The notes beneath the pieces are model-generated. The model was not told where the DNA came from and ran no database searches. It saw nothing but the letters and a program-made list of their open reading frames with translations. From assembly GCA_008632985.1 (NCBI GenBank), contig QPGO01000015.1, positions 311,998 to 375,997 of the forward strand: DNA of 64,000 bases. Direction: 5' to 3'. A program made the position numbers and the translations under genes. Source of the DNA: Psammoneis japonica. Its lineage: Eukaryota. Shown piece by piece: positions 1-64,000 of this stretch (its first letter is position 1; every line of letters begins with the position of its first letter).

Positions 1-38
1 ATGACATCCTTTTATCCTGTCATCCAAACTTTGAAAAG

Positions 39-33599: not shown

Positions 33600-33718
33600 T
33601 AGTCTTCCATTTTCATTAAAACTCTTTTTTTCAAAATGTCGACGATATGTGCCGGTACCGTAGTATCAGAGGACTCGTAGAGTTCCATTAATTTGAGCTA
33701 ATACTTAATTTTACGAGA

Positions 33719-40419: not shown

Positions 40420-43400
40420 GTGGCGACATTCACGGCACCGTCGTCATCGGATGAGGACTCACCATGGGAGGATTCACCATCAACAAATGCCCTCTGTGAA
40501 GAGCGCACTCGGGATTCGCACAATGGAAAGTCCAAACGGAGGAAGGGCAAACGAGACAATGACCAGAATTGGGATAAAAGGCGGAAGCTGTCTGTTGAAG
40601 CGAAGCCATCAAATGAAAAGATGCCATCTCCCTGGCGCCATTTTGCCAACAACATTCCTTTGCCCGACTCGATGTCACCCCACACTCAAGACCGTCAAAG
40701 CCGTGCTGCTGCCACAAATGGGACAAGCGAATCGCATGCTGTCAAGCGAGTGCCATCTTCAGGTGCAGTGTCGGTAAAACGAACAAGTGAGTTTGCCGCT
40801 GGAAAGCCACAAGTTTTGAATGGAAGCGCCAAAGCTGGCGGCTTCCCAGAAGAATCTTCCGTGAAGAAGCGCCAACGAGGTCCAGGTGAGATCGTGACTC
40901 GCTTTGTTTGTTTCCTGCATGATGATGATTGTCGTCATGAAACTCATTCTTGTCAATTTCATCTCATTTGTTGAATGTGGGCACAGATGGAGCTTCCAAT
41001 GCTGCAGCCAGTGGTGGGGTTGACGTGGAGGCACCCGCCACTGTGGCAAAGGGTGCAACACTTGCTGTCGGTGGATCTCCTGTGCCATCTAAAAGGAGGA
41101 GGGGCAAGAGAGATGAGGATCCGAGTCGCCAGCACGACAAGGAACAGCTGGCTAAGAAACAAAGGATCTGCAACGACAAGCTGACGAACGAGCCGCAGCC
41201 TCGTAAAGGATCACTTTTAGCGGCATTCATGAGGAATAAAAAGAGAAAGGAACTGTTTGCATCTAAGCAGGGCAACCATCAAAACAATCGTGATGTGAAT
41301 GCAGGAAATGCACAAGGCGCTGCCACCAGCAAGAAGAAGAGTCCACGTGGTGCTGGCAAAGCCAAGACACCTGACAGCAAACAGAAGTGGCAATGGAGCC
41401 CTTGGGAAGGACATTGCAGGATCACTTCCGATGGTCGCCGTGAATGCCAAGCCCCCGACTTAGCCGTGAGAACAATCAAAGCTGTTGGTGCTCGCAAGAA
41501 GACGACCATGTCTTTTGGCGCAACACTGACTGACACTGGATCTCAAAAACTCAGCAGTGGCGCTCATTTGAAACGGTCTGGCACCCTGTCACCACAAGCA
41601 ACTGCTGCCCGTGATGCGGACTGTCAAGGATTGCATCAGAACATGGCTTCTGAGAAAACAAGTGAGCTTCGCGCTGCTGCTGCTACAGCTGGTGCAGCAA
41701 AGCCGCCGATTCCCACAGGACAGGAAGCTGTTGCTCCAAACGAGAAGGGGGTCCTTTGCGATGGTGCGAATCGTCCGCGTGTCCACTGCGCTCGTTCCGG
41801 CAACCCCGTCGCCGCTGCTGTGAGCACTTCTGCCGCAAGCAAGCCTGAGTCTAGAGTGCAAATAAAAGCCAGAGTCAAGAAGAAGAAACCACATTGTGCA
41901 CTCAATCCCCTTCCGAGCATTCCTGAAGAGTGCAATGTAATTGATGGTGCGACTGCCAAGAAGAACACAAGTCCTAGTGGGGTGGACCAAGCCAAGACAT
42001 CTGTGAGCAATTGTGAATTCGAAATGAGTCGTTCGCAAAGAAATGCGGTTCCAGCTCCTCCACTTGTCCCAACCGGTAAAGCTGCAGCTCCCAAGAAACA
42101 GAGAACTTTGCAATGTGGTGGTGAACGGCGCGGTCGTTCCGAGAACGAGAACACTGCCACCAATGAAGACACACATGTTGCTGCCCAAGCCTCACCTTCA
42201 GCTGCAAATGGAACTCCAAAAATGGACGGTCTGTCGAAAGAGCACACCTTGAACATCACAGGCAGGAAAATGGTTCGGTTTGTTTCGCTGTGCCTTGTTC
42301 TTGACGAGGAATTTATTCTCACCACTTTCACATCTCGTTCGTTTCGTATGGACGCACGCTCTGCCCGTGTTGTTGTCTTGGACGCACCCACTGTTACGAG
42401 TCAACTTGGGAAGATCCAAGCCAGGATGCCTGATGTAAGTTTGAAATCGGGACCAACTGAGCACACGGGGAAACAAAAGGCTGCTTCTCCGGATGCATCC
42501 GTTTCTGCCATGGATTTGGAAATGCCGAATTTCAAGCGTGGAGATGATTGTCACAAGACCACAATGAGATTTGATGAAATGGATTCATTCCCCATGCAAG
42601 AGCCTGACAAAGAAGCAAACCAAGAAGACGATGAAAATCCCACGCCCAAAGTTGCAGAACCTGTTGTTGCTGCGTCATCAATCCAAATGGGCAATTCTTC
42701 CGGCGGATTGGCGCACGCTGCCAATGCAGGAAGTGAAACCGGTGGCTTGCCAAACGAGCCCTCTCCCAGAAAACGCAAACGAACTGCAGGTGGGACAGTT
42801 GCCCACGTTTTGCTTGTTGCTTCTGTTGTCTGCTGTCAACATTGATGCGACCCCCTTCTCATCGGTGTCATCTCACTCGTTGAACACAGACTCTGAAAAT
42901 GCATCTTTTGGCAATGATGGAGAATGTGAATCTGATGCCTTGGGTGACTTTCCTTTGGGATCTTCACCTGTTGCTGCCGCTGGCATCCTGTCCAATGACT
43001 CATTTGGCGCTCCCACCGCTTCGTCTAAAGAATCAAGCTGCAACCGAATTTCAGGCAAGAAGATGATGATTCCCTTTTCGTTGCTGCCTGTGTGATTTCA
43101 TTGTTGTTGACACTACCTCTTGCCGGCATCATCTCATTTCATTGAATGCAGACACAGAAAATAGATCTTCTGGCGAGGTTGAGAGGCAGCTTGATGCTTG
43201 CGACTCTGTTGAAGAAGAGGAAGAAGCAGCCAAGGCACCCATGCTTCCCACGACAGCCGGTGACCGTGAAGCTGGTGGGTGGCGTGGCTGTCCCATTCAA
43301 GGAGCATCGGATGGGCTAGGCCTGGCTTCGAATGCAACCGTCAATGCGACTGAGACCAATGGGTCAACGGATCCAACAAGCAAATCCACTTCCACTTGCT

Positions 43401-44350
43401 CGAATCATTCAGTTTCTACCATGTCATCTCGTTTGCTGAACAGAGACAGAGACTACAATGGATCTTCTGGCGAGGGTGACTTGCAGCTCACCCTTTTGAC
43501 TCTGATGAAGAAGAGGAAGCAGAAGAAACCAATGCCGGTGCACCCACGCGTTTCATTGCCGCCGGTGGCTGTGGAGGTGCTGGTGACTTGGGTGGCTCTG
43601 TCATTGGGGGGGGTGCCTGATGCCATGACAGAAGATGCCGAAGCAGCTGTGAGTGAAAGCGACGATTTGGACAGCCTAGATTTAGGGGCTCCACCTGCTG
43701 CTGCGACCGGGAACTCTGAGCAAGCTGTAGAAAAGGCTGCCAAACCTTCGGAAAAAGGACATCGTGTCAAGAGATGGAAAAGTGGTACAGGCGCTAGGTT
43801 GATGACTCAAGCAGAGGCTTCAAAAACCGGATTGAGCTTCGACAAAGGGCTTGCACCGGCAGGCTATTGCATTCCGGACACGCTTCGTCTTATCTTCCTT
43901 AACATGGTTCACAACAAAAACGTGAGAAGGGGATTAAAGATGTCCAAAGCGGCGATTCGAAAGGAATTAGGCCAATGGGTAGCGTCCGAGAAATACGTCC
44001 CTTTTTGTGCGAGCAAAGGATTTGAGGCGCAACTGTTGTGCCGTGAAGAATCTCGAAGTAAAATGGCGTTGCTTCTGAAAGAAGAAGGCGTGTGTCTTGT
44101 CATCGTGGATTGCACAGACAGGGTCAAAAACGTGATGGCCAAGCATGCAGTGGCATATTTTGCGAAGCATGGTGTCCTCGTAGACACTGAGCCTTGCACT
44201 CACTTCGTCAGGCTTGAAGAGAAGGATCGAGGGACTCTTAAGCGCCGAAACAAGACGTCCATCAAGAAAGCAAATCGCATCTTCAAGAAATTATTTGACG
44301 GCGAAGAAAACAAAATATTCGAAATATACCAGATTTCAAGGAAAGTGTAA
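40420..44350 (+). pseudogene. Unknown multi-exon gene (low-complexity N-terminal region, globular C-terminal about 200 aa), TpA-eroded over its 5' three quarters
   Basis: Long ORFs 40393..40974, 40950..42845 and 43142..44350, separated by four pyrimidine-rich intron-like segments. The 631-aa ORF contains no Tyr. Confidence 0.5.
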
Positions 44351-44469
44351 GAAACGGGTAGTCAGGTTTTTCATAATCAGTTGTATAGAGCGCAATAAAA
44401 CCATTTTGTAAACCACTGCATAAAATTGTAAGGAGAGACTTCAGACAGTGGCATTCTAGACGCGGTGAC

Positions 44470-47400
44470 AGCCACCAGCCCATGAGGGCTTTACGACCAA
44501 TTCAGAACACATCAGTGGCCAATCCTTTGGCAAAATGGCAGACAAGCTGTGCAGCAGAGCTGACAGGCTCAATCTTGATCTCCAAAGCCTCAACCCCAGT
44601 GCAAAACCAGTGGCATGGAATGCCGATGGGCTTGGTTCATGGGGACAATTTAGGCATGCAAGCAAGCTGGGGGCAAGCAGCATTGTCTTCATGCACAACA
44701 GATGCTGGCAGGTTGGCAGCATTGATGGGTGAGGAATCGGTGCTGTCCTTGGCCTGCAGGAAGGCCTCGGAGTGGGCAGTTGCCTTGTTGTGAGCATCCG
44801 GTTGTGCAAAGACGTGTGTGTTAATTTCCTTCAAGATCTTGCAAAGGGGGGTGAGATCGCACATTGCTTGGGAGAGTGCGACATGCTCGGCTTCCATCCC
44901 AGAAAGTGCCGCCAGGGTCTGCAGCTTGGACACCCAGATGATGGGACATCTGCCACAATGAACAACACAACTGGTGTGTGACTTGACAGAAGTGTGGTTT
45001 TGTCCATCTTCAATGCCAAAGAGTCCTGCAAAATCAGCAACAACATGACAATCAAGCCAATGATCTGCAGTGGGTGCTCGGATGAGACCCTTGTCAGCAG
45101 TGTCCTTCAAGTGCCAAAGAATGTGCTTGATTTCAACAGCATGGGAGGCCTTGGGAGCAAAGGAGAACTGAGCAACTTGGTGGGTGGCACAGGCAATGTC
45201 CAGGTGGCTGTTGGATGCCAGATGAGTCAACATGCCGACCATGGGCCGACAGTTGCCACAAGGTTCATCGAATGATGGGCCTTCAGAACCACTGCCAGCA
45301 GGTGCAGGAAGTGTGGGAGCAGGAGCTCTGTTGCAGTTTTCTGTCTGGGCAGCATGCAGCACTTTCTCAATTGGGCCAGGTTGGGTTGGCAGAAAGCAGC
45401 CATCCTTGAGTTTCTGGATCTTCTTGATGCCAAAAAAGTTGCCAACTTTGCCTGCATCATGCAGGTTGAATGCATGGCATTGCTCATCATTGGAAACACC
45501 CAATTTGGCAATCTCAGCTTCAAGCTCTACAGATGACACTCCGGTGAACAAATCATTGTCAACACATGCCATGCACAACATGCCCTTCTTGAAACAAATG
45601 CAAGGGTCAACAGCAGACTGAATCCATCCTTGTTCAATCAATCCATGGTGCAGCTTTTCACAGAAGCACTTGGGAGACTGGCAGAGTCCATGCAGGTCTT
45701 TCAACAATTTTGGTGCCAAGTCAGCACCTGATTTCTGCTGAAAACCCTCAGGAGGCTCCACACAGACTTTCTCCTTGACATCAGCTTGGAAAAAGGTGGT
45801 GACACAGTCAATTTGATGAGTGGTCCAACCTTCTTTGAGCACCATTGTGAGGAGAAGCCAAGTTGATGACCATTGCATGACGCACAGGTCTTAAAACAAT
45901 CAACACCTTGCACATCTGCAAATCACCATAAACACAACACTGGGCTTTGTGCTTCAAGGGTGCACCATCAGAAAGTCTTTTAAGCCAGAAAGCCCATGTG
46001 CCAGGCAATGCATTCATGTCATCAGTCCTTGGCACCATTTCCCATGCACGATGGTGGAGCAGCACATTTGTCTCAATCTTCATGGACCCATTTGTTGGCC
46101 CTGTGACTGCACACAGCTTCATGCGAGGGATGGCACATCAGGGTCCTTGTGTTTCTTTGCAGTTGCACAAACCCTTTGCGCAAACCCTGGGATCATCAAA
46201 GTTTCAGGTCTGCAAATCAATGCAGGTGTCCAGAGCAGCAAGATGCACCAACTGAGCTGCAGTCCCAAGCAACTCGTCTTTTGAGTTTACTGGAGCAAAG
46301 AAGACTTTGTCCATGAACCTTTCAGACAGCAACTGACCCTTGTTTGATCAACTTGAACAGCACAGTGGAGGAGCTAACTCTGGAGAAGTGGCAGGAGGAG
46401 ATTCCGGTGTTGTTGGCATTGTTGGAGGAGCAGGTTCAGGCAGAGTGATGGCAGGTGGTGGTTTTAACTCTGGTGGCAGTTCTGCAGGAGCACAGGCAGA
46501 GGACTGGAGGGTCATCAGGTGCATTGGGAACTTCAATGTGGACATCAGGTGTGTCCGGTGGAGGCAGTTTGAAAGCAGTCCATGCCTCTGAGCATGAGTG
46601 GATTGTCTGGGATCTGCAGGGGGGCGGCAAGTCATTGATGACAGAAGTGGTTTCAGGGTCACAGAATCACAGAAGTCAAACCCGTGATGGTGGATGCTTG
46701 GAGGTGAGTTCTCACAGGTGTCATTAAAAGATGCTGGGTTGCTTGCTTCATGCACAAGGTCATCCAACATGCTGTCTGACAGTCCTTCCATGTGACTTGA
46801 TGTGGCATCATGAAACACAACTGGATTCTTGATCTCTGATGCAGTGTGCAGGCTGAAAACAACTCAAGAGCTGGCAGTTCCAAGTTAAAAGAGGACAGAG
46901 CATTGGAGAGCTTGTGGAAATTGTCAGTGTCTTTGGGGTCAACCGTCTTGACCAAGATTGGAGCTGGTTTGGCCATGGCAGTTTCCCTCTTGGCCATTGG
47001 AGCAGGAGTGAAAGATGCAGAAGCAATGACCACAGGAGGGCTGCCCACAGCATTGTCAACAGGAGCACACCACATGCCACAATGGACAAGTTCTTCATTG
47101 GCATCAGAGTCCTTGTCCATTGGTGGAGCCGTTGTTTGCTCAGGAGGACCAAATGGGACACCCACAGAAGGATCATTTGCAGCAGAGAGATTTGCTGAAG
47201 CAGTGGCACTGGAGGTGGGTGAAAATTTGCTGGTGTGTTCAGCACTTGAATGGCCTTGTCACATGCCCATCTCACTGGTTTCCTTGTTGATGCACTTGTC
47301 ACACAATTTCCAGAGCATGCCTTTGTCATCAGTGAGGGTGGGTTCCTTGTTCACGAAATGCCAGGTGGGCTTGGAAGGTTTTGGTTTTGGAGATGGTGAG

Positions 47401-48850
47401 TCCCTGTCTGTCTTCTTTGTGTTGTTCTTGGACTCATCTGCTTTCACCCTCTGCACTGCCACGTGCTCTTTCTCACATGCAGAACACACATGCTTGGTGC
47501 ATCCAACCACACCACATCCCTGCAGCAATGCTTGTCCTTGATGGAAGTGTTGCTCGACTTGGGGAGTTTAGCTGTTGAGGCAGGCCAGTCTTCATCACTG
47601 ATGAGCTTGTCATGGGTCATGGCAATCCAGCCAATGTGGCCAACAGGCCCTGAAATTGTGCAGTCAGAGTGGTTTGGCACTTTAGCCAGGTTGCAGAGAC
47701 AACACTTTTGTGTTCCATCTTCTTAACATCATCCATCTTCAAGAATGCTTGACAATTAAAGAACTTGGATGAAGTCTTGGATGCTTTGGTTAAAATGGCA
47801 GAACCTGTGTCAACCAGCAGCACACAGTCCATCTTCACAATCTTGGCCAGAGGAAGAGCTTTGGCCACAAGCTCAGTGCAATCCTTGCCAGGGTGGAACT
47901 TGAGCAACAGTGCCTTGAGCTTCTCCTTGGTGGACTTGACATCAACAAGAGCACTTGCATTGCAAGTGTCCAGAGCCATCACAAACAACACTGACCCTGG
48001 AAGATCCTTGAAGTCCTTGATGTGGTTGAACTTGACTTTGATCTTCTTGCAGGACGTTTCCGTGATTTGAGACTTGACTTGGAGTTGAGAGAGACCAACA
48101 TTGTCCTTCTTGTAATTGTCACAGCCTTTGTCACCTGAAGCAGCATTGCAAGACTTGCACTCCTTCTCAAGAAGGTTGCTGACAGAGATGGCATGAAGGG
48201 AGTCTAACAGACAAACAACCTTGCTGACAGACGTCCTCTTTCAACGGCAGAAAATTTCTTGCCCGTGCAACTGACAAGGTCTTGGATGGTTTTGACAAAG
48301 TCTTTCTTGTCCAGTTTGGTGCTTGGACCGTTGGACAGCTTGATTTGACTGATGAACTTTGAGACAGTTGCTGAAGCAAGTTGTTCACAAAGGGATTGCT
48401 TGATGGACTTGGCAGCCTTTGGATGGCAATGCTGAGAGTGTCATCAAGAAGAGACCCACCAAGGCACATGCCACAAGAGGGATGCAATCCACCATGGATG
48501 GGGGTTGGGATGGGTGGATGTGCATCGGATGCTTGCATGGCTGCAAAAGCCTCGGCAAACTTCTTGAATGTTTCCAGATCCTTTCTGGGAGCAGTGGCAT
48601 CAGAATCAGACATGATGCTGGATGAGGATTTGACACAAAAGATCAACTGCAAGGACAGGATTGCAGCACAGAAGATCACCGCAGGATGGGATGTCATCAC
48701 AATGCAGTGCAGAGGATGACAATCACAATTGACTGGAGATTGCATTTTGACCTGACGGTTTTGTGTGTCACTCTGGTTGCTGTTGCCAGAAGACTCAATG
48801 GACATTTCTTCCAGAAGCAGAGATTGATGACCGGAAGCATCATCCATGAA
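44470..48850 (-). mobile_element. Degenerate Ty1/Copia (diatom CoDi-like) retrotransposon: gag about 48613-47240, RT-RNase H about 46200-44475; protease and integrase not seen
   Basis: 'LPGTWAF.LKRLSDG...KHKAQCCV.GD', 'VCVEPPEGF', 'LHGLCQSP', 'DPCI...CVDN', 'DCHVVADFAGL', 'PIIWVSKLQT..ALS.MEAEH.ALS', 'HEDN' and terminal 'LMGW'. Gag 'PIHGG...GG' and 'WKLCDKC'. Confidence 0.9.
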
Positions 48851-50299
48851 TCACACTTGGCATTTGACTCGCGACTCTGCAGGCTGGAACTTTGTTGTGT
48901 TTGATCTTTGTTGTTTCAAGAAACACAGCCACAGTTGTCTTCAAATGTCCTCAGGCTGTCCTTGTGACATTTTTGTGTTTGACAAACATGTGTTGACTCA
49001 TCTGAACAAGAGACAAAATGCCATGGGGGCACTCCTGGTGTTGAGAAAAAGCACATGGGCTCTGTGCAACCACCATGCAGGAGCACACCATGGACAAAAT
49101 AAAAAAATGTTGCTGTGGTTCACACAAACAGTGGTTCAGTGGAAGGGATGTTTAAAATGCACCCTGAACAGAACTCAGATGCAACACAGAAACTGAGATG
49201 AGGGAAGAGGCATCTCCTCCTGGCCTGCTGTGACACACTCAATGAGCGCACCCTCACCATCATCTGACAGCAGCAACTTAAGAATTCTCTGAACATGAGC
49301 TCCTCTGAGCTGTCACTTTTGGTGACCTCTGTCCTTTGCACAGCTTTGTTGGGCTTGCCAAGCTCTCCATCTGGCTGTTGCTGATGCCTCCTTTTGCAGC
49401 ACTCCAGATTTCTTCCATGGGCCCTCTCATGACACTCCCAGCCAGCCACAAGCTTTTGTCAGCTCCTCACTCTCACCAGCTGCTGGGAACTGTGCCCTGC
49501 TCTCTGCCCACAGCTTCACTCACATGCTGCTGCAAGTGGGGCAAGCTGTCTCTTTGGAAGCTTTTTGCTGCATCACCTGTCAAACCTGGTTCAGAGGATG
49601 GACTTGCAAGTTTGAGGGCAGACTCATCATTCCATCACACACCACAAAACAGTTTGCAGCTTTGAAACAGAGCAAAAGCAGCTGCTGCTTGACAAAGCCA
49701 CAGCCTGGAAGCAAGGTGTGGAACAACAAATGGTGTGGCATGTTGATGAGCTGTTGCAGGGAGGAGGGCAGTCCTCATTGCCATCTGCTGGTCCAAAAAC
49801 CATGTCAGCAACAACCATGTTTAACTCATGGAAGAGCCTCTGTTTTAACAGTTGTCAGCTTGACACCATTTTGGACATCTCACATTTCTCTTGTGGAAGA
49901 ACTCAAGGTCAATCAAATCTTCTGTGTTTGGAGCCATGAAAGCTGGCGTGGTCTCTGTGAACAATTTGTTGGAGTCAAAGTCACACACCATGTTTGCACA
50001 GCTTGTTTGTGTGATTTCAAATGTGCATGTTGCTTGTCCTTGCAAAAGCTCATCAGCCTTGTTTCTCAAAGTTTTGCAGCAGCTCACTTGCTTGCAACTG
50101 GCAATGGGCTGCATCTGCTGGTGACAACTCAGCGTTCATGACCTTGTCACCCCCAAAGCTGCACTGACTGAAGATCTTGAACAGATTTGATTGATTGTGG
50201 ACAAAGCTCTCTCTTTGTGGCTGCTCCTGAAGCTTCTTCAATTTGTCCAAACCATGCCAATCTTTAGAAAGCTGTGATCAAGGCAATCTCAGATGGTTG

Positions 50300-50760
50300 T
50301 GACACCACAACAGTCCATGTTGAGACTTTTTTCTCTTTTTCCGTCCTGATGCATTTCCAATCTTTTGCATGTTGGGATGATGTGTTTGTGATGCTCCATG
50401 CATGAAGTTGTCTTGTGCCTCAAGTTCTGCACCTCCACCGGCTGCTGCTGCAGGCACCACCACCAAGGGCTGTTTGCTCTGCAGCTTTGTTGCCTGGAAG
50501 AAGCTTGGCATGACCTTCCTCCCACTTGTCCTTTAGATGCATCATCTCAAACATGGTCCAGGTGCTGCTTTCAAGCAGCTGGTGCACAGGCTCCTGATGC
50601 TTCTCCAGACAAAGGGCAAGAATGTTTTACCCTGCCACAACATGGTTTGCACATTGCACAGGAACAACAGGTGCTCTTCACATGCACCTGCAGAAAAGTG
50701 CTGAAAACTCAGTTCAAGCACAGGACTGTCAGCATTGGCTGGAGGGTCCACGTTAGAGTC
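50300..50760 (-). mobile_element. Possible Ty3/Gypsy gag N-terminal fragment
   Basis: 'DPPANADSPVLELSFQHFSAGACEEHLLFLCNVQTMLWQG' resembles the diatom Gypsy gag pattern 'DP..ADSP.YEL....F..G..EE.L.F'; recognised from memory. Confidence 0.45.
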
Positions 50761-53700
50761 ATTTAGGAGTGTTAGTTTTTCAAACTACATACTTGTCTGC
50801 TGCTGCACCTGAGCTCAAATGTCAAACTCACCTTTTGACAGTGCCTTCTCTTCTCCAGATGTTGCAAAGGAATTGGCAGCTCACTCCACTTCTTCATGAT
50901 TGGTCAGTTCATCAACTGTGGTGTTGAAACCTGGCACACTTGCATGAATGTGTGCAAAAGAAGAGAGTTGGCAGACAAGAATCCTGCAGCTTCAGAGGTC
51001 AATTCATGCCAAAAAAACACCAAGAAAAGACAAGGATTCTGTGATGAAGGTGAGTGTTGAGTGAGTGCTTGTCAATTGTTGATCAGTTGATGCCTGCTGG
51101 TGATGATGAGCCACCTGAGTTCAAACTGCCAGCCAAGAAGCAGTGGAAAAGCAGCCCAAGTGCATCTCATTTCCAGTTGCAACAACACAAGTTGTGTGCA
51201 CCTGGCATGGTCAGGGGGTGGTGTCCCTGACCACCATGGCCCAAAGCAGTGAAATCATGCTTCACAAGAAGCTGCAAAGTGGTTTGATGTGACAAGCTGC
51301 TTTGGTGCCACCTTGGGGTCAGACAAAAGAAAATTCAAAGAAAGGACAATGGACTCTGCAGTGGGCACACATTTGGGCTGTGAACAGAAAAAGTGGAATC
51401 GCAAATGTGCGGCAAGGACAGCTCACACGAAAATGCATTTGAGTGTGCAGCAAAAGCAAGAACTGTCAGCAGCTGGAGTCAGTGTGTCAGTTGGTCCCAG
51501 GCCCTCAAATTGCTCAAACTGTGGAACTGGGGTGTCAGACACACAAGAAGCCAGCTGTGGCCATGGCAACTGCATGTCTGTGAGATGAGTGAGAAGAGTC
51601 ATCTCATGGACTTGATCTGCTGGTCCAAGATGTGGATCTCTGTGCTCTTGGTGTGCCAACACCCCCCATCCTGTTCCCTGATCAAAGCATGTTGCAGACT
51701 CCAAAGAAAAAGCAATGACATGAAGGCTGAACTTGCAAGTGTTCAAACTAAAAAAATCAGCAAGCTCATGGGTGCTGCTGTTCTTGAGCAAATCTTGAGA
51801 ATGTTCCAACAGCTGTGCTTGCAGCCAGCAGCCTTGATGTTCATGTTTGGCCGTTGCCTGGGAAGTCCACTGCCAATGTCAAGGCACATGTGTCATTTTG
51901 CCCTGCCATGACACAGCGGGAGCCAGCCTGCACTGCACAGACACAATGACTGGGTGTGCACTTCACACACTGGCAAAAAAGTGCAGAACATTCAGCTTGT
52001 GCATTGGGCTGTCAGCATCAGCTCTGGCAAGTTCCTGAGCTCACATGTCAAGCACTCTCTTTTTGACAATGCCTTCTTCTCCAGACATTTCAGCAGAGTT
52101 CATGTGGCTCAACCTGCTCATTCATGATTGGTTGATTTGTTGTTGGCATGGCTGACATCACAACCTTGGGCACTTGTGGGAGCAACACCACTGTGCCTGG
52201 TGCACTGTCAGGTGATGACATGGGGAAACAGCAGAGGGTGCCAAAGCTGCATTTTGTGAAAGTTGTTGTGAGGCTGGTTTGTCTCTAAAAAATGGAGTGG
52301 TGTGAGCAGGAAATGTGGAAATTCTCTTGTTGATTTGCACCATGGGCTGCAATGAAGCTGTGTTGATTTGGCCCACAGCTGGCTTCATTCAGAATTTGCA
52401 CAAGTTTTGAAAAAAACCAGATGCATCATCACATGTGCTTGCCAAATAAATTTCAACAATGAGCCAACTTTTGTCCATTTGCAAAACAACAAAGAGTCCA
52501 CTGATGATGATGATCATGGCCATGCATCATGTTCAGCTTGGCAACTCTGGACATGTCATCTGCAGCCGGTCAAATGCCAGCTGTTGGCATTTCCTGGGAA
52601 GTTGTGCCTTGTCCAACCACAATCAGTGCATTTTTGGCAAAAAACAGTGGTTTGCTTGTTGAATGTGACAGCTGTGGTAAATTCAAAAATTGGCATTTTG
52701 AATTTGAAGGTTGATCAGCACAGTTTGCATGAAGGTGTTGCAGCCCTGGTGGGCAGTGGATGAGTTCCAAGTGTTTGGGGGAACTCAAGAGAGGCATTCA
52801 AAACAACATGAACAAAGCATGAGCTGTTTAAAAATTTGCCAAGAGCTGATTGTTCATCCTTGAATCAGCTGCATTTAAGTTTCTTGGCTCTGACATTGTC
52901 TGCATGTCATCATGTGTGCACATGTGCATGCTGTGCCTGCATTGCTGTGCCTGCATGTGTCATCATCTTTGTGTCCTCAATGGCCTGAGTTGTTGATCCA
53001 CAGGCCCCCCTGTGCTGCCATGATGCATGCTTGCACAGTGCAGCAAACTAAAAGGAGAGAAATGATTGGTCCCAGCAACTCTGCCATTTGCATGTCCTTT
53101 CTACAAATCATTCCACGTGCACAAGCAAAGCACAAAACTCAGCATGCTGCATGTGGCTGGTGTTGACTGCACACACTGACCACAACAGCTGAAAACTGGA
53201 GCATGCTCTGGAGTGGTCAACAAGAAACAACAATTTGTTCCCTGTCCCATGAGACATGCTGCTTGGCTCCCTTTTTTGGGAGATGACAAACCCAATGTGC
53301 AAGCACACCTTTTCGGAGAGCAATGATCTCACCACCCAAGAGGATTGGCAGAGCTGAGATTTCAAGGATGACCATGAAGAAATTTGGGAGGGCAAGCCAT
53401 TTGGTGGAACCATTTGGTCTTGACAAAAGAGAGCCACCCATCTTTCTCACTTTTGGTGTGCACAGGACCAGCATGCAGCACAGTCACTGACTTTCCTGTG
53501 CATGCCAAAGAAACAACACCATTGCAGGCATGAGCTGAGGAAGGGTGGCTTTTAAATGATGACAAATGATGGCAAGTGCAAAGGAGGAAACCTGTTGCAG
53601 CATTGCTTGGTTGCAGAGAAGGAAGACAAGTTGCTTGACAATGTTTTTTTTTTCATTTTTGAGCATCTTGAGCACATCAAGTGAAGAGGTGCCTTTGGCC

Positions 53701-54149
53701 AAGAAAGGGATGGAGGAGGAGAGGAAAGAGTTCAGAGCCTGCATGGCTGCAAAGGAGGGGGACTCAAGAGCTCAGAGACTGCCTGGCTGTGAGGGAGAAA
53801 AACATGAAGCTGTCTGCAATCTTGAAGCCACTGAGCTGCAGATCCATGTCATCCCTGTTCAAAGATGCTGTGCAAGCAGCAGCAATGAAAGGGACCAAGA
53901 ATGCCTGTTTGTCACAGATTTTCATGCAAAAAGGCATGATCAGACTGCCCAACATGCTGCTCCACACTTGTGCCTTGGACCCAGCCTTGGCTGGCTGTGT
54001 TTTGGGCACCATGATTGACAAAGCATCTTTTTCACAAATCCATCTGTTGTGCCAAAGAAAGGCATTTACACTGTACAAAGCTGCAAGGACTGCAGGCCAA
54101 CATCAGCTGGTGGAAGCAAGGGCAGTGCACATCCCCATTGAGGATCCTT

Positions 54150-56900
54150 GCCTGATCCAAAGACATGATGTGCCAGTTGGTTTGTGGCAAACTGTGCTGC
54201 ACCACCCCACTGAGACCTTTTTGGTGCTCGGTTGTTGTTGACGTTGTGTGTTTCCCACCAACCTCATGTGCACTCCAGGAGTTGACTGGTGTCATGGAGC
54301 AGGTGCCAGCACACATTGACTTCTGACAACCCAACAAACTCATCTGTGGCACATTGCAACTGCTGATTTTTCTTGTGGTTGTTGAAGAGTGGGAGTCCCC
54401 TTGGGTTTTGCAATGCTGTTCTTAACGCAGATTCTTGTTTTTTCCCTGAATCATCCCCCCAATCCTCACCTGGGTGGACAACTCTCTTGCCTGGTGCTAA
54501 AGGCTGTTGTCTAAATTCCCATGCATTGTTTGTCATGCAGTTTCATCACCTTTGGCACCCATTCCTCTGTCCAACTTGATGAGTGCCCCCCTCCCCACAC
54601 CCATCCAGCAGTTGACCCCATCTCTCAGCTCCTGCCCTCACAGGCTCTTGGTCTGCAGCACCCAGTTGCTGGGGTCTAGGTTGCCTTGGATGGCATCATT
54701 CTCAGGGGGCTGGGTGGCCTTGCCTGCAGGGGGGGGTTGATTGGGCTCACCCTGTCCTTGCAATGCTGCGGTGGGTTCATTCTGACATGTTGAGTTTGCC
54801 AGTTGGACTTGAACTTGAAGGTTCCTGATGGTGGCTTCCATCTCAGCTGTCTGTGTTTGCATCTGTTCTGGTTCATCTGCAGTTAAGGTGGGTGTGCTTT
54901 GCGTTGATTGAAGCTGGTGAATTAAGTTGATGAGGCCTGGTTCCAATGGGCAATTTGAGCCCATTGTGGCCACAGATTTGTTGGTGACATCCGGGCAGAA
55001 ATCACATTGGCTTCAACACATCTTGGGGGCTGGTTGTTCAGGCAGCTTGGGTTTGTTGCTTGCCTCAGGCTTGGATCTGTCTGCGAAGATTGTGAATTAA
55101 AGATCCTTGTCTCCTTCAAGCAACTCAGCTGGGGTGAGGTCTTCCTCAGTTGCTGCTGCTGCGCCATTGGAAGGATCAAAGATGAGAGAGTCTGCCAGCT
55201 TGTTGGCAGCAGTCATGAAGTTCAGATGGTGTTGCTCATCTGAGTGGCGGTGCTTTAAGAGTGGCAGGAGACTGGTGATTCTTCCTCTTGCTTTGTTGGA
55301 CAGCTTGGGCAAAAAGTTGAATTTTGTGCATCCGGCATTTTCTTGTGCTTGTTGATGACTGGGAAAAGTTTCTCTCCTGGGTGCTTGTTGGAATCCATCT
55401 GCGTTGTTGCCTCACACAAGGATTTTCTGTTTGGCTGACTTTCAGATTTGCAGCCAAGTTCAAAGATCTGGTCCATTGATTCCTGGCAGCAGTCATTGCT
55501 TCTCATCATCCTGACAAAAGTGTCTTGCCCAGCTCGCAGCATCTGTGCACCCCATTTTGACCAGTCATTGAAGACGTTTCTACAGCTTGGAATGAAATGG
55601 CAGCATTGGCCTGAAGGGAATCTATCTTTTGCTTTTGAGGAGCAAACATGCTGCAGAGCCTTCCTGCCTTGGTGTTCCTTTTTGGAATTGGCTTCAGCTT
55701 TGGCTTCGAAAGCACAGACTTTGTTTGTCTTCATGTCCCGCCTCTGGCCTGGTTCCTGCACATTGACATTTCTCCATCTAAAGCCTGCCTCCTGGCCCAC
55801 GGCTTCCTGGAAAACAACCTTGTGGGCTTCACGGTTGTGGTCCTCAAAAGAAAAAAGCAGCCAACCCAGCTTGGAGAGCTCCTGTGGAAGTGGCACTGAG
55901 CCAGGGTACAGTCTGACATCGTTGTCCTGGAAGAAGTGGTCAACCTCCTCCATGATGGTGTTGTGGGACTTGTTGCTTCTAATGAAGTTGTTGTGAAAAG
56001 CCTCCACCTCCTTTTGGGTGACACAGCACTTGTGAAAGTGCTCCCTCATCTGTGCATCATTCTTGGGTGGCTCTTGTGGTTTTGTCAGTGGCTTCTTGTT
56101 CGAGCCCTCTCTTCATGGGCATGGCATGTGTGATGTGTCCACTTCCTGGAGCAGTTCTCTGCCAGGACATCCTGATGGCATTTTCTAGCCTCGCTCCTGT
56201 CCTTCTTGGCAATGAACTTGATGATGAGCATGCACCTGTGTCAGTGGGTCCTGGGTGCAGCCTGAACCGCCAGCATGAGTTGCTGAACCATCTCCTGGGG
56301 GGTGGGTTTGAGGTGGAGGTTTCTGTGTTCCAAGAGCTCTCATTGTCCTTTGGAGCACCAGTCACTGGAGCAGCATCAGAGTTGTTTCCAGATGGGCCAT
56401 GGTCTTCTTGAGAGTTTTCATTTTGGGCCAGGGTGGAATTGTTTTGTTCGGGGTTGTCCTCCTCACCCTCATTGTGATTGGATTGGTTCACTCTTGGGTC
56501 AGATGCCAGCAGGAAGCAGGGGTTGTATCCTGGATCACCAGGGAACAGCTGTGAGCTGTGGCCTCGGGTTCCAATGGAGCGGGTGGGCATTGTGGCTTGT
56601 GATGTCATAAATCCCCTCTGCCTCCATGTCTGTGGTGATGTCCTGAATGGTTGGATCAACCATGACGAGTTTGAAACTGCCTGGCTTGCTTTTGAGGAGA
56701 TTTCTGAGTGAGATTGTAGCTGTTGGTGGCAGCTGATGAGGACAGTGATTCCATGTCATCATCTTGGTTGGTTTGAGTTTGTGAAATCGTCATTCCATCC
56801 CCCCCTGCATCATCAATGGACTGTTTGGATTGTTCAACTCCAATCGGTGTCCAAGCAACCACCCAATTGTCCATCAGCCCAATCAGATGGGAGTCAGTTC
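54150..56900 (-). mobile_element. Degenerate non-LTR retrotransposon (Ambal-like): ORF1 about 56900-54900 plus the start of the ORF2 AP-endonuclease about 54540-54150; RT not seen
   Basis: APE N-terminus 'WGDD..KKQESALR.ALQNPRGLP...KN...GLSEVNVCWH'. ORF1 'LGWLLFS...FRWRNV...SS...FPSG...FIP...LR..Q..F...KLF'. Confidence 0.7.
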
Positions 56901-57139
56901 TCGATTTTTTTTGTCCTTGTTTGTTTGAAGACCCTTCAGTTGCCGGAATTTCACAGTCTCTGACCATGGTGCTGCACACATTTCCCCATCCTGGTCGCAG
57001 TTGGTCCTGTGGCACTGCTGGCATTGATTCCATGTGTCAGATTTGAGTGGCTGTGACTTCCCTGCACACCTCTGCACAAGGGATGCACCACAGCATGTTT
57101 GTCCACAGTTTCTGCCAGTTCACAATGTCACAGATCTTA

Positions 57140-57967
57140 GAGAAGTGCAATGGGCTGCATCACATCACTGCAGCCACCATGTCCCTCTCCAGCTTCCATG
57201 CTGCACCCCGTCAAGGCTGTTTGGATTGCACCAAACATGTCTGTGGATTCTTGTGCAAGATTCAACATGGTGCCCTGCAATTGCATGCCAAGGAACACGA
57301 CTGTTTGGACCTTTCTAAGCCTGTGCATGACTGGGCTCAAACCACACATGGTGATGCGGAGCAACTGATTCCCAAAGACATGCGCAGCCCTCTTGGCAAC
57401 TTTGTCACCATGACCCATTGTGTTGATGCAAGCTTGCTCCATTGCATGCTCACTGGATGCTCTGTCACAGGCATCATTTTTCATTTCCTCAACAAGTTTC
57501 CAGCTGATTGGTTCTTCAAGAAACAAGCTGCAGTTGAGACTGCAACTCATGGATCTGAGTTGTTTGTTGCTGCTGGGATGTGTGTTGAACAACAGATCAT
57601 TGATCTGTGCATCACATTGCATCACCTTGTTGTCCCAATCCACAACACATGTTGCATGTTTGGGGACAACAAGTCAGTTGTGGACAGTGCCACCATCCCC
57701 CACTCCAAGTTACACAAGCGACACACCGCCCTCTTGTTCCATCATGTGCGTGAGGCAATTGCCTCTGGTTTCCTCAAGTTCGACTTCCTTGAAGGTTCCT
57801 GCAACCCCGCTGACATCCTCAGCAAACACTGGGGTTGCTCCCAGGGTTGGAACCTCCTCCATCCTCTCATGTTTTGGAGCTTTGATCCTGAGGCCTTTGG
57901 TCAATCTGACTTTGAATCTGTTGCTGCTGTGGACTCCTCAAGCAAACTGAGGAGTGACAGGATTTGA
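57140..57967 (+). mobile_element. Degenerate Ty1/Copia (CoDi-like, second family): RT C-terminus and RNase H, then a PPT-like GAGGAG and probable LTR start TG at 57955
   Basis: 'MSLSSFHAAPRQG.LD', 'THCVDASLLHCMLTGCSVTGI', 'KKQAAVETATHGSE', 'MFGDNKSVVDSATIPHSKLHKRH.AL.FHHVREAIA' and 'NPADILSKHWG'. Confidence 0.92.
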
Positions 57968-58227
57968 ACAAGATTTTAGTTTGTTGCACAAAAATGTGTG
58001 TGCTTTCAGTTCTGCACATGACACAAATGCAGTTTGCTTTTGAGCCACTTGGCTCATGAGAATTGTGACAGTGGCACCCACATCATGACACCCCAGTCTT
58101 TGGGCTCCCACAACACATTGTCTGCATGAGCACTCATCTGCTGTTTAGACAGCAGCAAGGAGTCATTGTTTTCTTCCACCCAGTCATCTTGTTTTCTGTG
58201 AACTCACATTCATGCTCACAAGGACTG

Positions 58228-58575
58228 CAACAGAGGCAACACTTTTACCCTGAAGAGCAAAGGACTTGATTGAACAGCAAAGAAAAGAGGTGGCATTGAA
58301 GACTGACTGGTGTGGATGGAAGCAGTCATCCAGAGTCATGACAAGCTGAGAGTCAGTGGCTTCATGCAGAAACAATGCCAGATCTTGCCCAGAAAAGCCA
58401 ACAGGCACAGCAAATGAATGATCAATGGACACTGGAGGATGACTCATGCTTGCGCTAGAAAGGGATCCAACAACAGAGGCAGTGCTTTCACCCTGAAGAG
58501 TGAGGGAAAAAGAAGCAGTGTTGAAGAGAACCCACTGGCATGGACAGAAGCAGTCTAGAGATGTGACATGCAGAT
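58228..58575. repeat. Diverged direct repeat of about 110 bp (about 58228-58345 and 58470-58575)
   Basis: Shared 'caacagaggca..ctt.accctgaagag', 'ttgaaga..actgg..tgga..gaagcagtc'. Confidence 0.7.
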
Positions 58576-58639
58576 TGTCAACAGTTTCTTCTGAGTCCTG
58601 CAGAACTTGAGCTGGAACCTGTGCAAAAAGGTTTCTGAG

Positions 58640-59920
58640 ATGACAGAAATTTGAGAGAAACAACAACCAGTGTGTGAGCCACAAGGCTTTGACACACACA
58701 ATTTTCTGCTGAAGAATGTTGCTTGTCATGCTGCAGTTGGCAAATGTGAACAAAATGGGCTTGTTGGAGCCAACATGACACCATCTGAGAAGGGCAACAT
58801 CAGTGCAAGAAGTTGTGCACAAACCCGCATGGAGACCAGAATGTGCAGCTGACATCAAAAAGTGCAATTGCAAAAAGAACAGCTGCATGTTTGCCAAATG
58901 CACTGCACTCCAGTTCACCCTTCACCTGTGTGCTTTGTGGGGGGGGGGCACACAACAACAGCCAGGATGCCATCAAGACAAAATTGTTGTGCTGCCTGGA
59001 GGTGTTGACAATGCCTCCACCAGCTGAGTGGTGCATGAGCAGCTGCACTGCCCTGGCAAGACATGTGCAGAAACATCCACTGCCCATCACTTCCACTGGC
59101 CTGGCATCATGAGTGCTGCAGTGCATTCTGCATGTGTCAAGTGCAAACAATGCCAGGAGATGAAATGCCAGACACAGCATTGCAAGAAGCTGTCAGAAGT
59201 CCAAAAAAACAGCCAAAAGAATCCTGCAGGAGACCTTGTGTGTGGATGTGACATGGGGTCCCACCAAATTGAGTGATTTGGAAAAGACACTCTGCAACAG
59301 TGAACAGCAACTGTGACTGCCCAGGCACCAGGAAGATTCAAGTGCCAAGATTGTGGAAGTGTCTGCCAAACATGATGCAGGTGTCACAGAGTCACCAGGG
59401 CAAATGTCATGAAGCAAACCTCCCTGGCCATGTGCAGGTGCATCCAAATCCACAGGCAAGCACTTCTGCAAAAATGCACACAACAGACACTTGGAAATGT
59501 GGTGTGCTCATTTTCAGTGTGGGACATGGAGTTGGACAAGGGGAAGGGCATCCTTTCAGCCATGGCTTCTGTCATGCATGCTGCATCACATGCCACTGCA
59601 TGGGCAAATCCCAAACAATTGGCCTTTGACATGATGCAGCTCTTCTGTCCATTGCCCTTTGTGCCAAGTGGTGGCACACCTGATGCAGAAAGCTGAAGCT
59701 GATGCACTCAAATGACAAATGCAAAAGCATGAAACAAAAGGAGTGCCAACACACCACAGGGCAGTTGGCACTTGTTGTCAAACAAGGGCAAAAAGACAAA
59801 ACACAGAACTGGTTGTCATGCAGGTCCTGCCAGTGTTGTCAGCATGAGTGACAGCAACACTTTGCATCCACAAGATGGTGTGCTGACACAGACATGTGCA
59901 ATCTGTGGCAGATTGTGCAC
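58640..59920 (+). mobile_element. Degenerate Ty3/Gypsy RNase H end and integrase
   Basis: Zn-binding region 'HEQLHCPGKTCAETSTAHHFHWPG...CKQCQ'. Core end 'QQTLGNVVCSF...GILSAMASVMHAASHAT..ANPKQLAF'. GPY/F-like 'HAGPASVV'. Confidence 0.8.
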
Positions 59921-59934
59921 TGCCATGCCACATC

Positions 59935-60670
59935 ACATTTTTCTTGATGCAACAATGCAGATGAGCACTGATGGTTGATGTGCAGGAGTCATTGGCTCTC
60001 CCAAATTTGCATGAGAGGCCAATGGATGAACATGATGACAGTGTGGTGGCAGAACTGTCAGCACTTTTCTGCTGCCATGCAACAGCACAATGTTGTCATT
60101 GACATGACAACACAGATGAGTGCCAATGGCTGGTGCATCAGAATGGCCCATTTTGCTCAAACTGCAGGAGCTCATCATTTTGTTCAAACTTGCATGAGAC
60201 TGGCACCACTTTCATGATGGTGTTGCAAGCACTTTTCTGCAGCCTTGTTGCAGGGTGTCTTTCTTCACAACACAGATGAGTGCTGACGGCTGGCACAAGA
60301 AGAGAACAACCACTTTTGCTCAAATTGTGGGAGTCACTGGCTTGTTCAAATTTGAAGGAGAGACCAATGGTGCCAACACAATGACAACATGGTGGTGGCA
60401 TGTCAACACTTTCCCACAGCTGTGCCACAACAGCATGTCTTTCATGATGTGACAAGACTGCAGATGAGCATTGATGGCTGGTGTGAAGGAGAGCAGCCTG
60501 TTTTGCTCAAACTGCAGGAGTTCATCACATTGTTGTTCAAGCTTGCATGAGACAGCCAACAGCACTTTTTTGTGATGATGATGTGGCAGAGTTGTCAGCA
60601 CTTTCTTGCAACCTTGCCACAGTGTGTCTTTCTTGACAAGACAGCACAAATGATTGTTGATGAACATGTC
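59935..60670. repeat. Degenerate tandem array of about 4.5 units of 155-188 bp with an ABAB higher-order structure
   Basis: Anchor 'cagatgag' at 59958, 60113, 60273 and 60461 (variant at 60647). Shared 'ttttgctcaaactgcaggag' and 'tgtcagcacttt'. Confidence 0.8.
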
Positions 60671-61229
60671 ATGTTCTGGCACACATCAGCAATTTGGAGA
60701 TGCACTGGGCAGCAACAATGTTCCTGTCATTGGCACACTGCCAAGGTGCACATGAAATGGTGGTTTGTGAGCTTGGCTGCTGCACCACCCCCACATGAGT
60801 GCCTCAGAACTGCCAAGCAAGTGTTGATCTTCAGATGGTCCTGATGCATGATTTGGTCATTTTGGAAGACTGGCAGAGATTGTGCTTTGAATCCATGGGG
60901 CACCCTGCCTAAAAACAACTTCCATGTTGGCAACATCTGCTTTTTCAATTGCCACAAAACAAGTCTCAGCATGTGGTCCAAACACTCTGATGGCAGCACA
61001 TGCACACTTGTGGGACATTGTCACATGCAGAGACAATGCTGCAGTTGCCATGAAGTGGTGGGAACTTCAAATGGTGGCATCTGCTGTTGCACCATTGTAG
61101 AGTGCAGCATCTTCACTCCTCATGTCTCTTCATGATGTCTGCATGGTGCATCACAGAATTGTGCATGGCGCATGCATGCATGGAGCCCCACATGGGGTTG
61201 CACTTGCACACCAAAATGAGCTCTCTAAG

Positions 61230-62130
61230 CTTTCCATGGCCATGACATCTTTTCCTAGAGAATGTTGGGTGAGTCATTGCATGAGCCCATTTGCAGGACC
61301 TGCGTGTCTTGCACCACCTTCCTCATGGGCAGACAAGCATGCACATCTTTTGGCTGCCACCATCAACAAAGTCAAATGTGGCAGCATCCAGCATTGAGGA
61401 GATCCGATGATGTCACCCACCACACAAAGCCTTCAAGCTCATGCAGCATGTCCTGGATGTGAGGAATTGGGTGGGTCAATCTTTTGACCCCATTGTTGAG
61501 CTCCCAGAAATCACCAAGAAACCATGCCAGCACAAAATCTTGCTTTGGCAAGGAAAATGATGGAGCTGCACACTGCAGACACAGTTGGTTGTGCATCCAG
61601 TGATGAGAATTTCACAAATGCGCTCCACTTCCTTTCTCTTGGCATCGCTTCACATCCCCTTGGGGCTTTGCAAGGATGTCTGTTGTCAGCAACATGGCTC
61701 AGCATGATCCTCTTTAAGCTGGGTGTGGTGAGGACCCCCTTTCCATTCACCTGACATGCCATCAAACAAGGACTCACACTTTTTCAACAAACTGAGCAGC
61801 TTCACTTTCCAGTTGCTGTCAAGTCCTGTTGCTCCCTGCATTGTGTCCTCAAGGCATGCTGGCACATGCTTGGCATCTGAGATCTTTAAAATTCCATTGC
61901 TTTCTGAAAACAGTGGCTCTGGATCTTGAAAACAGATGGAGGTTTCTGCAGTGGCTTCTGTGCATTTAAATGGCATCTTGTTGTTAACCTTTGGCCACTC
62001 TAGCATGTCTCATCCAACAACCATGTCAGGTTTGCCCAATGATCAGCTGTGTGTGTGGTGAACTTCACACACAAGTTCTGCAGTTGTGGACAATTCTGGC
62101 AACTGGAAATTGGTGGTGTGAGAACTGTGT
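61230..62130 (-). mobile_element. Degenerate Ty3/Gypsy protease-RT fragment
   Basis: 'LLSLLKKCESLFDGMSGEWKG.PHH.QLK', 'KEVERICE', 'AAPSFSLPK', 'DFWELN..VKR..HPIPHIQDMLHELEGF', 'SDLLNAGCCHI' and 'MG.CN'. Confidence 0.88.
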
Positions 62131-62439
62131 GCCATCTTAACTCTTTGTTTGCCAGAATAGATTAGATTGGAATTTTTTGCATGGTGTGCAGATGCACATG
62201 TTTTTCATGATGTGCACCACCACACACCACAAGGGTGGTGATGCCAACAGCCACAACAGCGTTGTTGCATTTGCCATTGTTGCAGAGCCACCATGGCAGG
62301 TGATGTCCTCCACCATTTTCCAGTGGCATTTTTTTATTTCAATGTTGTGGTTGCTGTCATTGCCAATTTTTCCTCTGCAACAATTTGACTGCATTCATGT
62401 GGTTGCTGTTGTTGTTGCTGTGTGAGACATTCCAACTGT

Positions 62440-62955
62440 GAGCTGTGCTTGGAATTGTGGAAGGGGGGCAAAAGAGATGCAAGCAAGCTTTTGTTTCATG
62501 GTTAAAGCAAGACATGTTGTTGTCTCTTGCATTGTCATTCAGTGCTCAACACATTTCATGTGATGCCTTGGCATCACACACTGATGCATGTTTTCTGGCT
62601 ACACTCATTTGTTGCATCAGAACAAATGGAGAGCACTGTTGGTGGCATGGCAGTGAACTGTCACAGCAATGCTTTTTGTTCAGATTCAGGTGCAAGTGCT
62701 GCAGGAATGGCAGGATGCATGCCAGTTTAAAGAAGTCGCTCTTCCTTTAAAAAAATCATTTGGAAACTGTTGTTGCGCGTGATGCTGTTGGATTTCAAGT
62801 GTGGATGGGGGGCAAAAGCAACAGATGCAGGCAAGCTTTTGTCATTTTTCAAAGTGAGTTTACATTGTCTTTTCTTTGTTCAACAGATTCCATGCATCAC
62901 ATGCCAACACACATCATTTTTTACACCTCGGCACTGCACACTGATGCATGTGGTC
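62440..62955. repeat. Diverged direct repeat (about 62440-62600 and 62785-62955) in unidentified degenerate DNA
   Basis: Shared 'tgtgga.ggggggcaaaag...agatgca.gcaagcttttgt' and 'cacactgatgcatgt'. Confidence 0.7.
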
Positions 62956-64000
62956 AAATGTCTTCATTGCCTTCTTGTTGTGCACAAGGTCTTCTTCTTG
63001 CACAGGCCTCTTCCTCCCTTTCTTTGGTTGACAGGTCTTTCCATGTGTGAGACCATGTTTGCTGAAAGAGCACCACTGCAAGGCACACACTCAATTAAGC
63101 CACAGCACAGAGTGGCGCATGTTGTGTGACAGACAATGCACGTGCACATTGCCAATTTTAAACTGGCAGTTGCTGCACTTTGTTGCACCCAACATGTGTT
63201 TTAGATGTGTTGATGGCAACAATCTTAAATTGCACTGGCAGTCTTCTGTTCAGCTTTTCTTTTCTCATTGGCTGAGGGAGCCTTGTCTGCAGTGCCTGTG
63301 GACAGACATCTCCTTCCCCATGACTTCCTTGTCAAGATGCCTCTCAGAGGATCAGGGTGCAGGACATGTTCTTTGTGCATTGCATGTGAGCTTGTGCAAG
63401 TGAACAAGAGACAAAAAGGCATTCAGTGGACAAACAGCAAAGGGCTGGTCTTCTGCAAATGGATGCAACTAAGATCAGTGGAAGCTCACCTCATTTTCTT
63501 TTGTTGGTCAGTGCAAGAAATGACGGGTGAAACAGCAGCTGCAATTTCTGATGGCACTGGAGGTCAAGCAGTGGCTGGGGGAGCCATGCAGGACTCCAAA
63601 TCAGCATTCTCCATGGCAGTGTCAAGGGAGCTGAAGGTGAGCATAAAGACATGCTTGCCATTGTCCATGTCCATCATGCCCATGCCACAAACAACCGTGA
63701 TTTTGCAATGAAAAGTGGAAAACAGCAGCACAAAAAGCAAGGGTTAGCTGAGGGAATGTGAAGTGCAAAAAAGGACAATCCAGCGTAACAGAACAACAGC
63801 GTTGTGATGCACACTTGCCCATTGTTTGACAATCCACCAGATTCCATCCTGCAAATGACAACACCATTCTGTCAATGATGGTGGCTGGTTGCACCTGTCA
63901 TGATGCAAGAAATGCTGATGCAACAGCCGGTGAGTCACAAAGTGAAAACAAGATGGCAACACAACAACACACCAAGTCAAGCCATCACAATGCACCTCGC

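Follow-up and report, generated by a model that had tools for sequence, protein, structure and literature searches.

Chromosomal DNA of the diatom Psammoneis japonica is subject to a mutational process that is targeted to tracts, specific to the dinucleotide TpA, restricted to transitions and biased towards an adenine with a pyrimidine on its 3' side (5'-TAY-3'; Y, pyrimidine; R, purine). We describe it from a window of 64,000 nucleotides, the whole stretch of DNA that was analysed (contig QPGO01000015.1, positions 311,998 to 375,997, or G000:C15:311998-375997 in the 91.4 Mb, 597-contig source assembly G000), and from aligned copies of long terminal repeat (LTR) retrotransposons. For one gene of this assembly the best matches that carry a name belong to diatoms (Skeletonema, Thalassiosira, Seminavis, Nitzschia, Pseudo-nitzschia, Fistulifera). 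The TAY preference is real and well supported; the enzyme is a candidate deaminase only. We consider adenine deamination of DNA by a host deaminase the best explanation, and a fairly probable one. The argument starts from the following features of the window:

44493..64000: deep relic block, with TA and CG both erased and CA and TG doubled; it extends about 3 kb beyond the window end, into the downstream stretch L043
44800..63800: span of the surviving-TA finding, with 93 TA left (64 YTAR, 14 YTAY, 11 RTAR, 4 RTAY)
44637..45890, minus strand: copia-type reverse transcriptase relic (Pfam RVT_2, E 1e-16)
10101..39900: host gene region with normal TA and CG, used as control together with 1-6800

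Surviving TA sites and the neighbour rule

An earlier note, made from the letters of the window, had claimed that TA sites left in the relics are dominated by TTAA, TTAG, CTAA and CTAG, with RTAY sites very rare, and had proposed a TAY-preferring mutator. The observation is real. Each of the ten residual sites that it cited proves to be a YTAR tetramer, lying 0-2 bases from the position given, and YTAR accounts for 64 of the 93 TA in the 19,001 bases counted (TTAA 32, CTAA 13, TTAG 13, CTAG 6), while RTAY contributes four (GTAC 2, ATAC 1, GTAT 1, ATAT 0); base composition alone would give about 23 per class. YTAR is the rarest class among the 1389 TA of the host control (36.6 kb; YTAR 246, YTAY 361, RTAR 352, RTAY 430), so that relic and host differ with a Fisher odds ratio of 10.3 (p 5e-25), and no such skew is seen in host DNA outside open reading frames of at least 100 amino acids (YTAR 71/259). 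Depletion is far from uniform and follows the predicted ranking: relative to host, 50% of the YTAR density remains, 7.5% of YTAY, 6% of RTAR and 1.8% of RTAY. The pattern recurs in relic DNA chosen independently (48 kb from eight other stretches, selected by CpG loss alone), where 161 TA sites are divided into YTAR 104, RTAR 28, YTAY 27 and RTAY 2. The flanks of residual CG sites are not skewed (23/29/28/28 of 108). The YTAR tetramers are themselves unequal, CTAG (6) being no commoner than TTAC (7), and 51 of the 93 survivors lie in TTTA or TAAA contexts, against 161 of the 1389 host sites; protection of TA stems mostly from a 3' A.

The direction of change can be read from the copia relic. 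Its open frame of 417 codons contains no tyrosine, 5.8% cysteine and 5.5% histidine. Loss of tyrosine with an excess of cysteine and histidine is the expected outcome of TAY changing to TGY or CAY, which fixes the direction as TA to TG or CA. Among 27 aligned TA sites of a young copy, L012, none is still TA in this relic.

Counting survivors does not by itself prove a TAY target, because TA is self-complementary and mutators of the A in TAY or in RTA leave the same ranking; alignments of sites before and after mutation are required. We therefore aligned 71 copies of five LTR families. The first set used 21 of 30 loci (the remaining nine belonged to the window's own block or its duplicates, or were distant relatives), the other sets 21 of 30 loci and 29 of 30 loci, the last drawn from the best 30 of 150 matches. 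Columns were counted if they held at least four copies, at least one of them still TA, and few other states, a filter that favours purity; a site that every copy has lost goes unseen, which makes the counts too low for the fastest contexts. After division of each copy into hot and cold tracts, only the hot observations were fitted (5785 of 9291, at 772 sites).

The TA-bearing columns hold TA 4272 times, TG 2565, CA 2454 and other states 51 times (CG only 8). Transitions occur at rates of 0.13-0.39 at TA, against 0.025-0.07 at other A/T positions, and TA transversions at 0.002-0.017. The products are thus pure transitions, TG and CA, on both strands, and the sense-strand bias is inconsistent between families (z -0.6, +4.3, -2.0, -3.6, +0.7).

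The strand-resolved fit bears out the TAY preference directly. The rate ratio of pyrimidine to purine at +1 is 2.44 (2.17-2.89, bootstrapped by site because shared derived alleles mean that events are not all independent), with competing-risk relative rates in hot tracts of A 0.59, C 1.56, G 0.70 and T 1.57; C and T exceed A and G in all five families. It is a preference only, as the earlier note had expected, for TAG and TAA also mutate. The base 5' of the T of TA has a lesser effect (purine/pyrimidine 1.25; A 1.40), A at -3 accelerates (1.34) and T retards (0.69), and at +2 A retards (0.73) and G is neutral (0.97; 0.88-1.08). The fraction of TA kept in hot tracts rises from ATAT (0.05), ATAC (0.08), ATAG (0.11), GTAC (0.16) and GTAA (0.22) to CTAC (0.24), ATAA (0.25), CTAG (0.34), CTAA (0.42) and TTAA (0.42). 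Where a site is mixed, mutation struck the strand with a pyrimidine 3' of its A about twice as often as the other strand (CTAC 531 vs GTAG 206; TTAT 439 vs ATAA 234; TTAC 381 vs GTAA 197; CTAT 327 vs ATAG 189). Outside TA, hot tracts show a low level of A>G, with rates of 0.014 before C, 0.013 before T and 0.004 before A and G; this leak with the same 3' bias fits a leaky enzyme.

The fitted rates account for the survivors of the window. Starting from the TA contexts of four lightly mutated gypsy copies and run to the window's TA density, the model predicts YTAR 56.6, YTAY 15.2, RTAR 17.1 and RTAY 4.1, where 64, 14, 11 and 4 were seen, and TTAA 28.8, where 32 were seen. The strong YTAR skew is a mild preference amplified by near-saturation, with about 90% of sites lost.

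Tracts, timing and CpG decay

Mutation is confined to sharply bounded kilobase tracts. The ratio of observed to expected TA (o/e) is about 0.4-1.0 in host DNA and 0.00-0.15 in the relic, where from 45001 onwards CG o/e is 0.00-0.25 (per kb; borders by segmentation). Single elements are patchy. In one copy, 13 of 153 sites were mutated in the first of two halves compared, against 101 of 123 in the second; private events in cold tracts number only 43.

When an element inserts, its two LTRs are identical. In 11 repeat pairs from 10 elements (of 20 planned; one pair is a short extra repeat), 3312 columns contain 89 differences of TA versus TG/CA, 36 of TG versus CA, 36 of CG versus TG/CA and 21 others. 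TA differences between the LTRs of the same element place the change in chromosomal DNA, after insertion, and the pairs imply that the mutator would have been active recently. Transposon ages based on LTR divergence come out too high in this genome: TA versus TG/CA or TG versus CA accounts for 125 of the 182 sites that differ.

CpG sites decay in the same hot tracts, with transitions at 2-7% in four families and 22% in the oldest; TA erasure runs well ahead. CpG decay was rejected as the cause of TA loss, for young copies combine CG o/e of about 0.95 with TA o/e of 0.14-0.32, and several gypsy loci from metagenomes are CpG-poor with normal TA. The latter, on metagenome contigs L189, L205, L215, L221 and L223, are gypsy relatives with strong CpG loss, a case of CpG decay without TA erasure in other hosts.

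Some elements have unusual tract patterns. In gypsy family G1 (L128, L130, L133, L125, L131 and others; anchor about 815-2680), unmutated islands of 1-2 kb lie in heavily mutated elements, with tract borders near 1960 and 2690 recurring in several copies. The islands stem partly from choosing copies by an intact reverse transcriptase domain. Recent gene conversion as their origin is unsupported: by transversions the cold tracts are not younger (55/13,905 cold vs 26/9,660 hot). In the gypsy element L266:2629-8010 (G000:C77) the terminal repeats of 166 bp are identical and retain 15 TA, while TA o/e of the interior is 0.03-0.26; such a pattern would arise if the interior alone mutated very fast or if a copy transposed after it had been mutated.

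Other features of the window are:

39948..43676: younger-stage block, by segmentation, with TA lost and CpG mostly retained; duplicated host-type gene family
57047..57967, plus strand: open reading frame of a second multi-copy retroelement family, relic, with no Pfam family
6836..10056: second deep relic, with TA and CG lost; four TA remain in 6901-9950, three of them YTAR
36679..62715: duplicated stretch, with a copy on contig C54 at 95-99%
15094-18000, minus strand: PRP6-like splicing factor, within the host control region

In the younger-stage block, TA o/e is 0.05-0.31 and CG o/e 0.64-0.89 between 40001 and 43000. The host-type gene family has frames at 40941-42845 and 43070-44350, gave no Pfam match over 40941-44350, and has paralogues at 67% without TA depletion. 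Duplicated host-type genes are also mutated. No RNA run was listed as containing 40000-44400, and the one DNA run mapped is probably the source sample, hence not independent support. The frame at 57047..57967 has about 38 relatives at 76-83%; by motif it looks like the RNase H end of copia, the Pfam search giving no match.

A segment of 26-29 kb (window 36679-64000) occurs on C15, C54 and C221 at 95-99%, and in part on C340; the portion from 38336 to 64000 and beyond is the one found on C221. The segment includes 1.6-3.2 kb of normal host-like DNA, and is either a segmental duplication or a large mobile unit. Differences between the window and the copies on C54 and C221 are mainly transitions, many at TA, TG, CA or CG sites, and the block's copies on both contigs went on diverging in the same fashion. 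Elsewhere, duplicated genes of the cytosine methyltransferase family (L254, L255 and L256; G000:C301 and C297) are eroded to TA o/e 0.02-0.18, other methyltransferase genes being untouched (PF00145 matches total 29), and a deaminase-family fragment with Tyr-to-His/Cys-like changes lies inside a TA-erased block (L040 / L167; G000:C151:67547-67717).

Mechanism and candidate enzymes

We propose that a host activity acting on the chromosomal DNA of repeat-rich tracts would convert the A:T pair of TpA to G:C, one strand at a time, giving TG or CA, and once either has formed the target is gone from both strands. The lesion would be made by a zinc deaminase that turns A into hypoxanthine, replicated as G, and chromatin or RNA may guide the enzyme to silenced repeats, in defence of the genome. 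Purity of outcome, the strict 5' T, the 3'-biased leak and the missing matches to AAG and TET/JBP together favour adenine deamination. A search of the genome gave no match to the AAG/MPG glycosylase. Without this enzyme hypoxanthine could persist in DNA. The corresponding search gave no TET/JBP candidate, in an assembly whose incompleteness cannot prove absence.

Matches to PF00383 and PF14437 comprise only dCMP deaminase, TadA-like, ADAT2-like, RibD-like and guanine-deaminase-like frames (labels by eye); among them were ordinary TadA/ADAT2-type genes and no specialised deaminase. PF02137 matches two genes, one on C40 that is ADAT1-like (label by eye) and one on C79. The candidates in the genome are ADAT2/3 and this second gene of ADAR/ADAT1 fold (L165:4171-5887, G000:C79). 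By sequence it matches the ADAR deaminase domain and has intact zinc-binding motifs; a modelled homologue (pLDDT 62) gives a predicted match by fold as well. The exons seen contain no double-stranded RNA-binding domain, and the gene adjoins a TA-erased block. Its family occurs in diatoms, chrysophytes, haptophytes, dinoflagellates and Ulva, and one database member, P0425, has an added PF01035 DNA-binding domain. Among the named matches none is by name from Bigelowiella natans (most matches are unnamed), the ESM Atlas gave generic A_deamin clusters only, and titles and the beginnings of abstracts revealed no paper on the algal family. The C79 protein is a weak candidate and may be a plain tRNA editor. 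That it flips out and deaminates the TpA adenine of duplex DNA or of DNA:RNA hybrids, as a repeat-tract-guided "inverse RIP" common to diatoms and chlorarachniophytes, is a speculation to which we give little credence.

Several points weigh against deamination by a host enzyme. Because A>G in TAY and T>C in RTA are one base-pair change, the sequence does not tell which base was damaged. Endonuclease V is present in the genome, and the searches with PF00383, PF14437 and PF02137 found no deaminase fused to a chromatin reader and no expansion. Same-strand runs are absent (0.508 vs 0.506 permuted; sparse private events 5/9), leaving no sign of a processive single-strand deaminase; this test is weak, for repeated rounds would wash runs out and the sparse set has only 43 events. 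Five host-type gene copies at 99.4-99.8% (L086-L090, family of window 40941-44350) lack TA depletion, so repetition alone is probably no trigger, although these copies may be too young to show the loss. The ADAR-fold candidate is widespread in algae, yet related gypsy loci from metagenomes have TA o/e below 0.3 in only 2 of 436 windows (80 loci), a weak and biased control, because its search pattern requires intact tyrosine codons and repeats are collapsed in assemblies. The good fit to the survivors depends on the transposon prior: if the model starts from host DNA, it predicts only 40 YTAR. Finally, derived alleles are common to copies above the context prediction (0.64-0.71 vs 0.54-0.56); either some changes were inherited or the model is incomplete.

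Four other explanations were weighed. We think it unlikely that the changes come from error-prone repair, in which a Y-family polymerase would fill gaps in silenced chromatin and, at TA, insert G across from T or C across from A. The WA signature of Pol eta, which favours TA, and the T:G misinsertion of Pol iota are analogues, the genome has five Y-family polymerase loci, and the mutation is distributed in tracts. The Pol eta signature, however, makes AA hot as well as TA and includes many transversions, whereas here AA is cold (A>G after A 0.010, against 58-95% TA loss in hot tracts) and TA transversions are few beside the transitions; the same-strand runs that gap filling would give are missing as well.

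Just as improbable in our judgement is a repeat-targeted enzyme that would oxidise or alkylate the T of 5'-RTA-3', which would then pair with G and yield T>C. Such a reaction is formally identical to the data, and several genes of DNA methyltransferase families are present. Against it stand the zero TET/JBP candidates of the incomplete assembly, and we know of no such T-modifying mutagenic system.

ADAR-like editing of retroelement transcripts, fixed by reverse transcription, is very improbable and largely refuted, although an ADAR-fold gene exists, derived alleles are partly common to copies and one element has identical LTRs around a mutated interior. Editing of transcripts would affect the sense strand only, whereas both strands are mutated about equally; the LTRs of single elements differ at TA sites; duplicated non-retroelement DNA goes on mutating; and the sparing of AA and the slow 3' G are unlike what is described for human ADARs (PMC3113232). 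That composition, A/T tracts or newly created TA in old DNA produced the YTAR excess is hardly tenable: TTTA/TAAA flanks are over-represented among survivors and some relic TA may be new, so re-creation may add a little, but YTAR is the rarest host class and the bias is directly visible as rates and strand choice in young copies.

Comparison with known systems

The earlier note held that the context fits a deaminase, with reference to TadA. TadA is matched only loosely: 5' T and +1 C are favoured, while T at +1 equals C and G at +2 is neutral. TadA and ADAT2 share with the process described here the A to G outcome, the 5' T/U neighbour and a favoured +1 C. The natural motif of TadA is described as a looped UACG that strictly requires G at +2, and its derivative TadA8e as having a slight YA preference only and none at +1 (PMC10586758). 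In our case the demand for 5' T is nearly absolute, C (1.56) and T (1.57) at +1 are alike, +2 G has no effect, and the UACG motif is not followed. A single-strand substrate, as in TadA/ADAT2, would leave same-strand clusters; here no strand runs are seen, but repeated rounds would erase them and the sparse set is small (43 events).

ADARs are reported to act on duplexes with a preferred 5' U and multiplicative neighbour effects, the human enzymes also accepting 5' A and ADAR2 favouring 3' G (PMC3113232), and can deaminate dA in DNA/RNA hybrids (PMC5389660). Likeness to ADAR1/ADAR2 consists in the 5' U preference and multiplicative neighbours, the second ADAR/ADAT1-fold gene being a candidate link; the differences are the chromosomal DNA target, the sparing of AA and the slow 3' G. 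Adenine deamination as the lesion would imply a natural editor of DNA adenines; base-editor work had to evolve such an activity in the laboratory.

Fungal repeat-induced point mutation (RIP; RID/DIM-2) is a dense transition mutagenesis of repeats on both strands, with a dinucleotide rule and sharp borders. All these traits recur here. RIP, however, makes TpA from CpA, whereas here TpA is erased, CpA and TpG are doubled, and C>T before A amounts to 2/10816 in hot tracts. RIP is triggered by duplication; the five near-identical gene copies keep TA, perhaps being too young, while other duplicates are mutated.

The closest counterpart is the hypermutation of TpA to TpG/CpA measured in integrated viral DNA of the chlorarachniophyte B. 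natans in mutation-accumulation lines (Mettrop et al., bioRxiv 10.64898/2026.01.13.699255). According to this preprint, it consists of transitions only, is local to foreign DNA, runs opposite to the usual AT bias, lies about 1000-fold above background and occurs only in some lines; ADAT2 is proposed as the enzyme, as a candidate only. The preprint counts 231 such hypermutations. Its main text states no rule for the flanks and does not contain the words "context", "flank", "trinucleotide", "diatom" or "CpG", although figures and supplements may hold flank data. By this comparison the diatom process matches that of B. natans in its dinucleotide rule. In both, A:T to G:C transitions are restricted to TpA, TpG and CpA arise on both strands at the DNA level, and the changes are local to foreign or repeated DNA, with genes spared; in the diatom, though, duplicated host-type genes are mutated and one near-identical family is spared. 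The diatom case differs further in belonging to another supergroup, in approaching saturation, in affecting copia, gypsy and duplicated host-type genes, and in its kilobase tracts with slower CpG decay alongside.

Nothing was found on TpA erasure in diatoms among titles and the beginnings of abstracts, most subscription papers lying outside this coverage, and within the literature covered a targeted A-to-G mutator of chromosomal DNA has been measured only in the one chlorarachniophyte preprint. The neighbour profile (5' T essential, +1 C/T 2.4x A/G, slowest at TTTAAA-like sites) is a putative fingerprint of a DNA-editing defence. It provides a test for candidate enzymes, and equally a test of whether one process is at work in the diatom and in B. 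natans.

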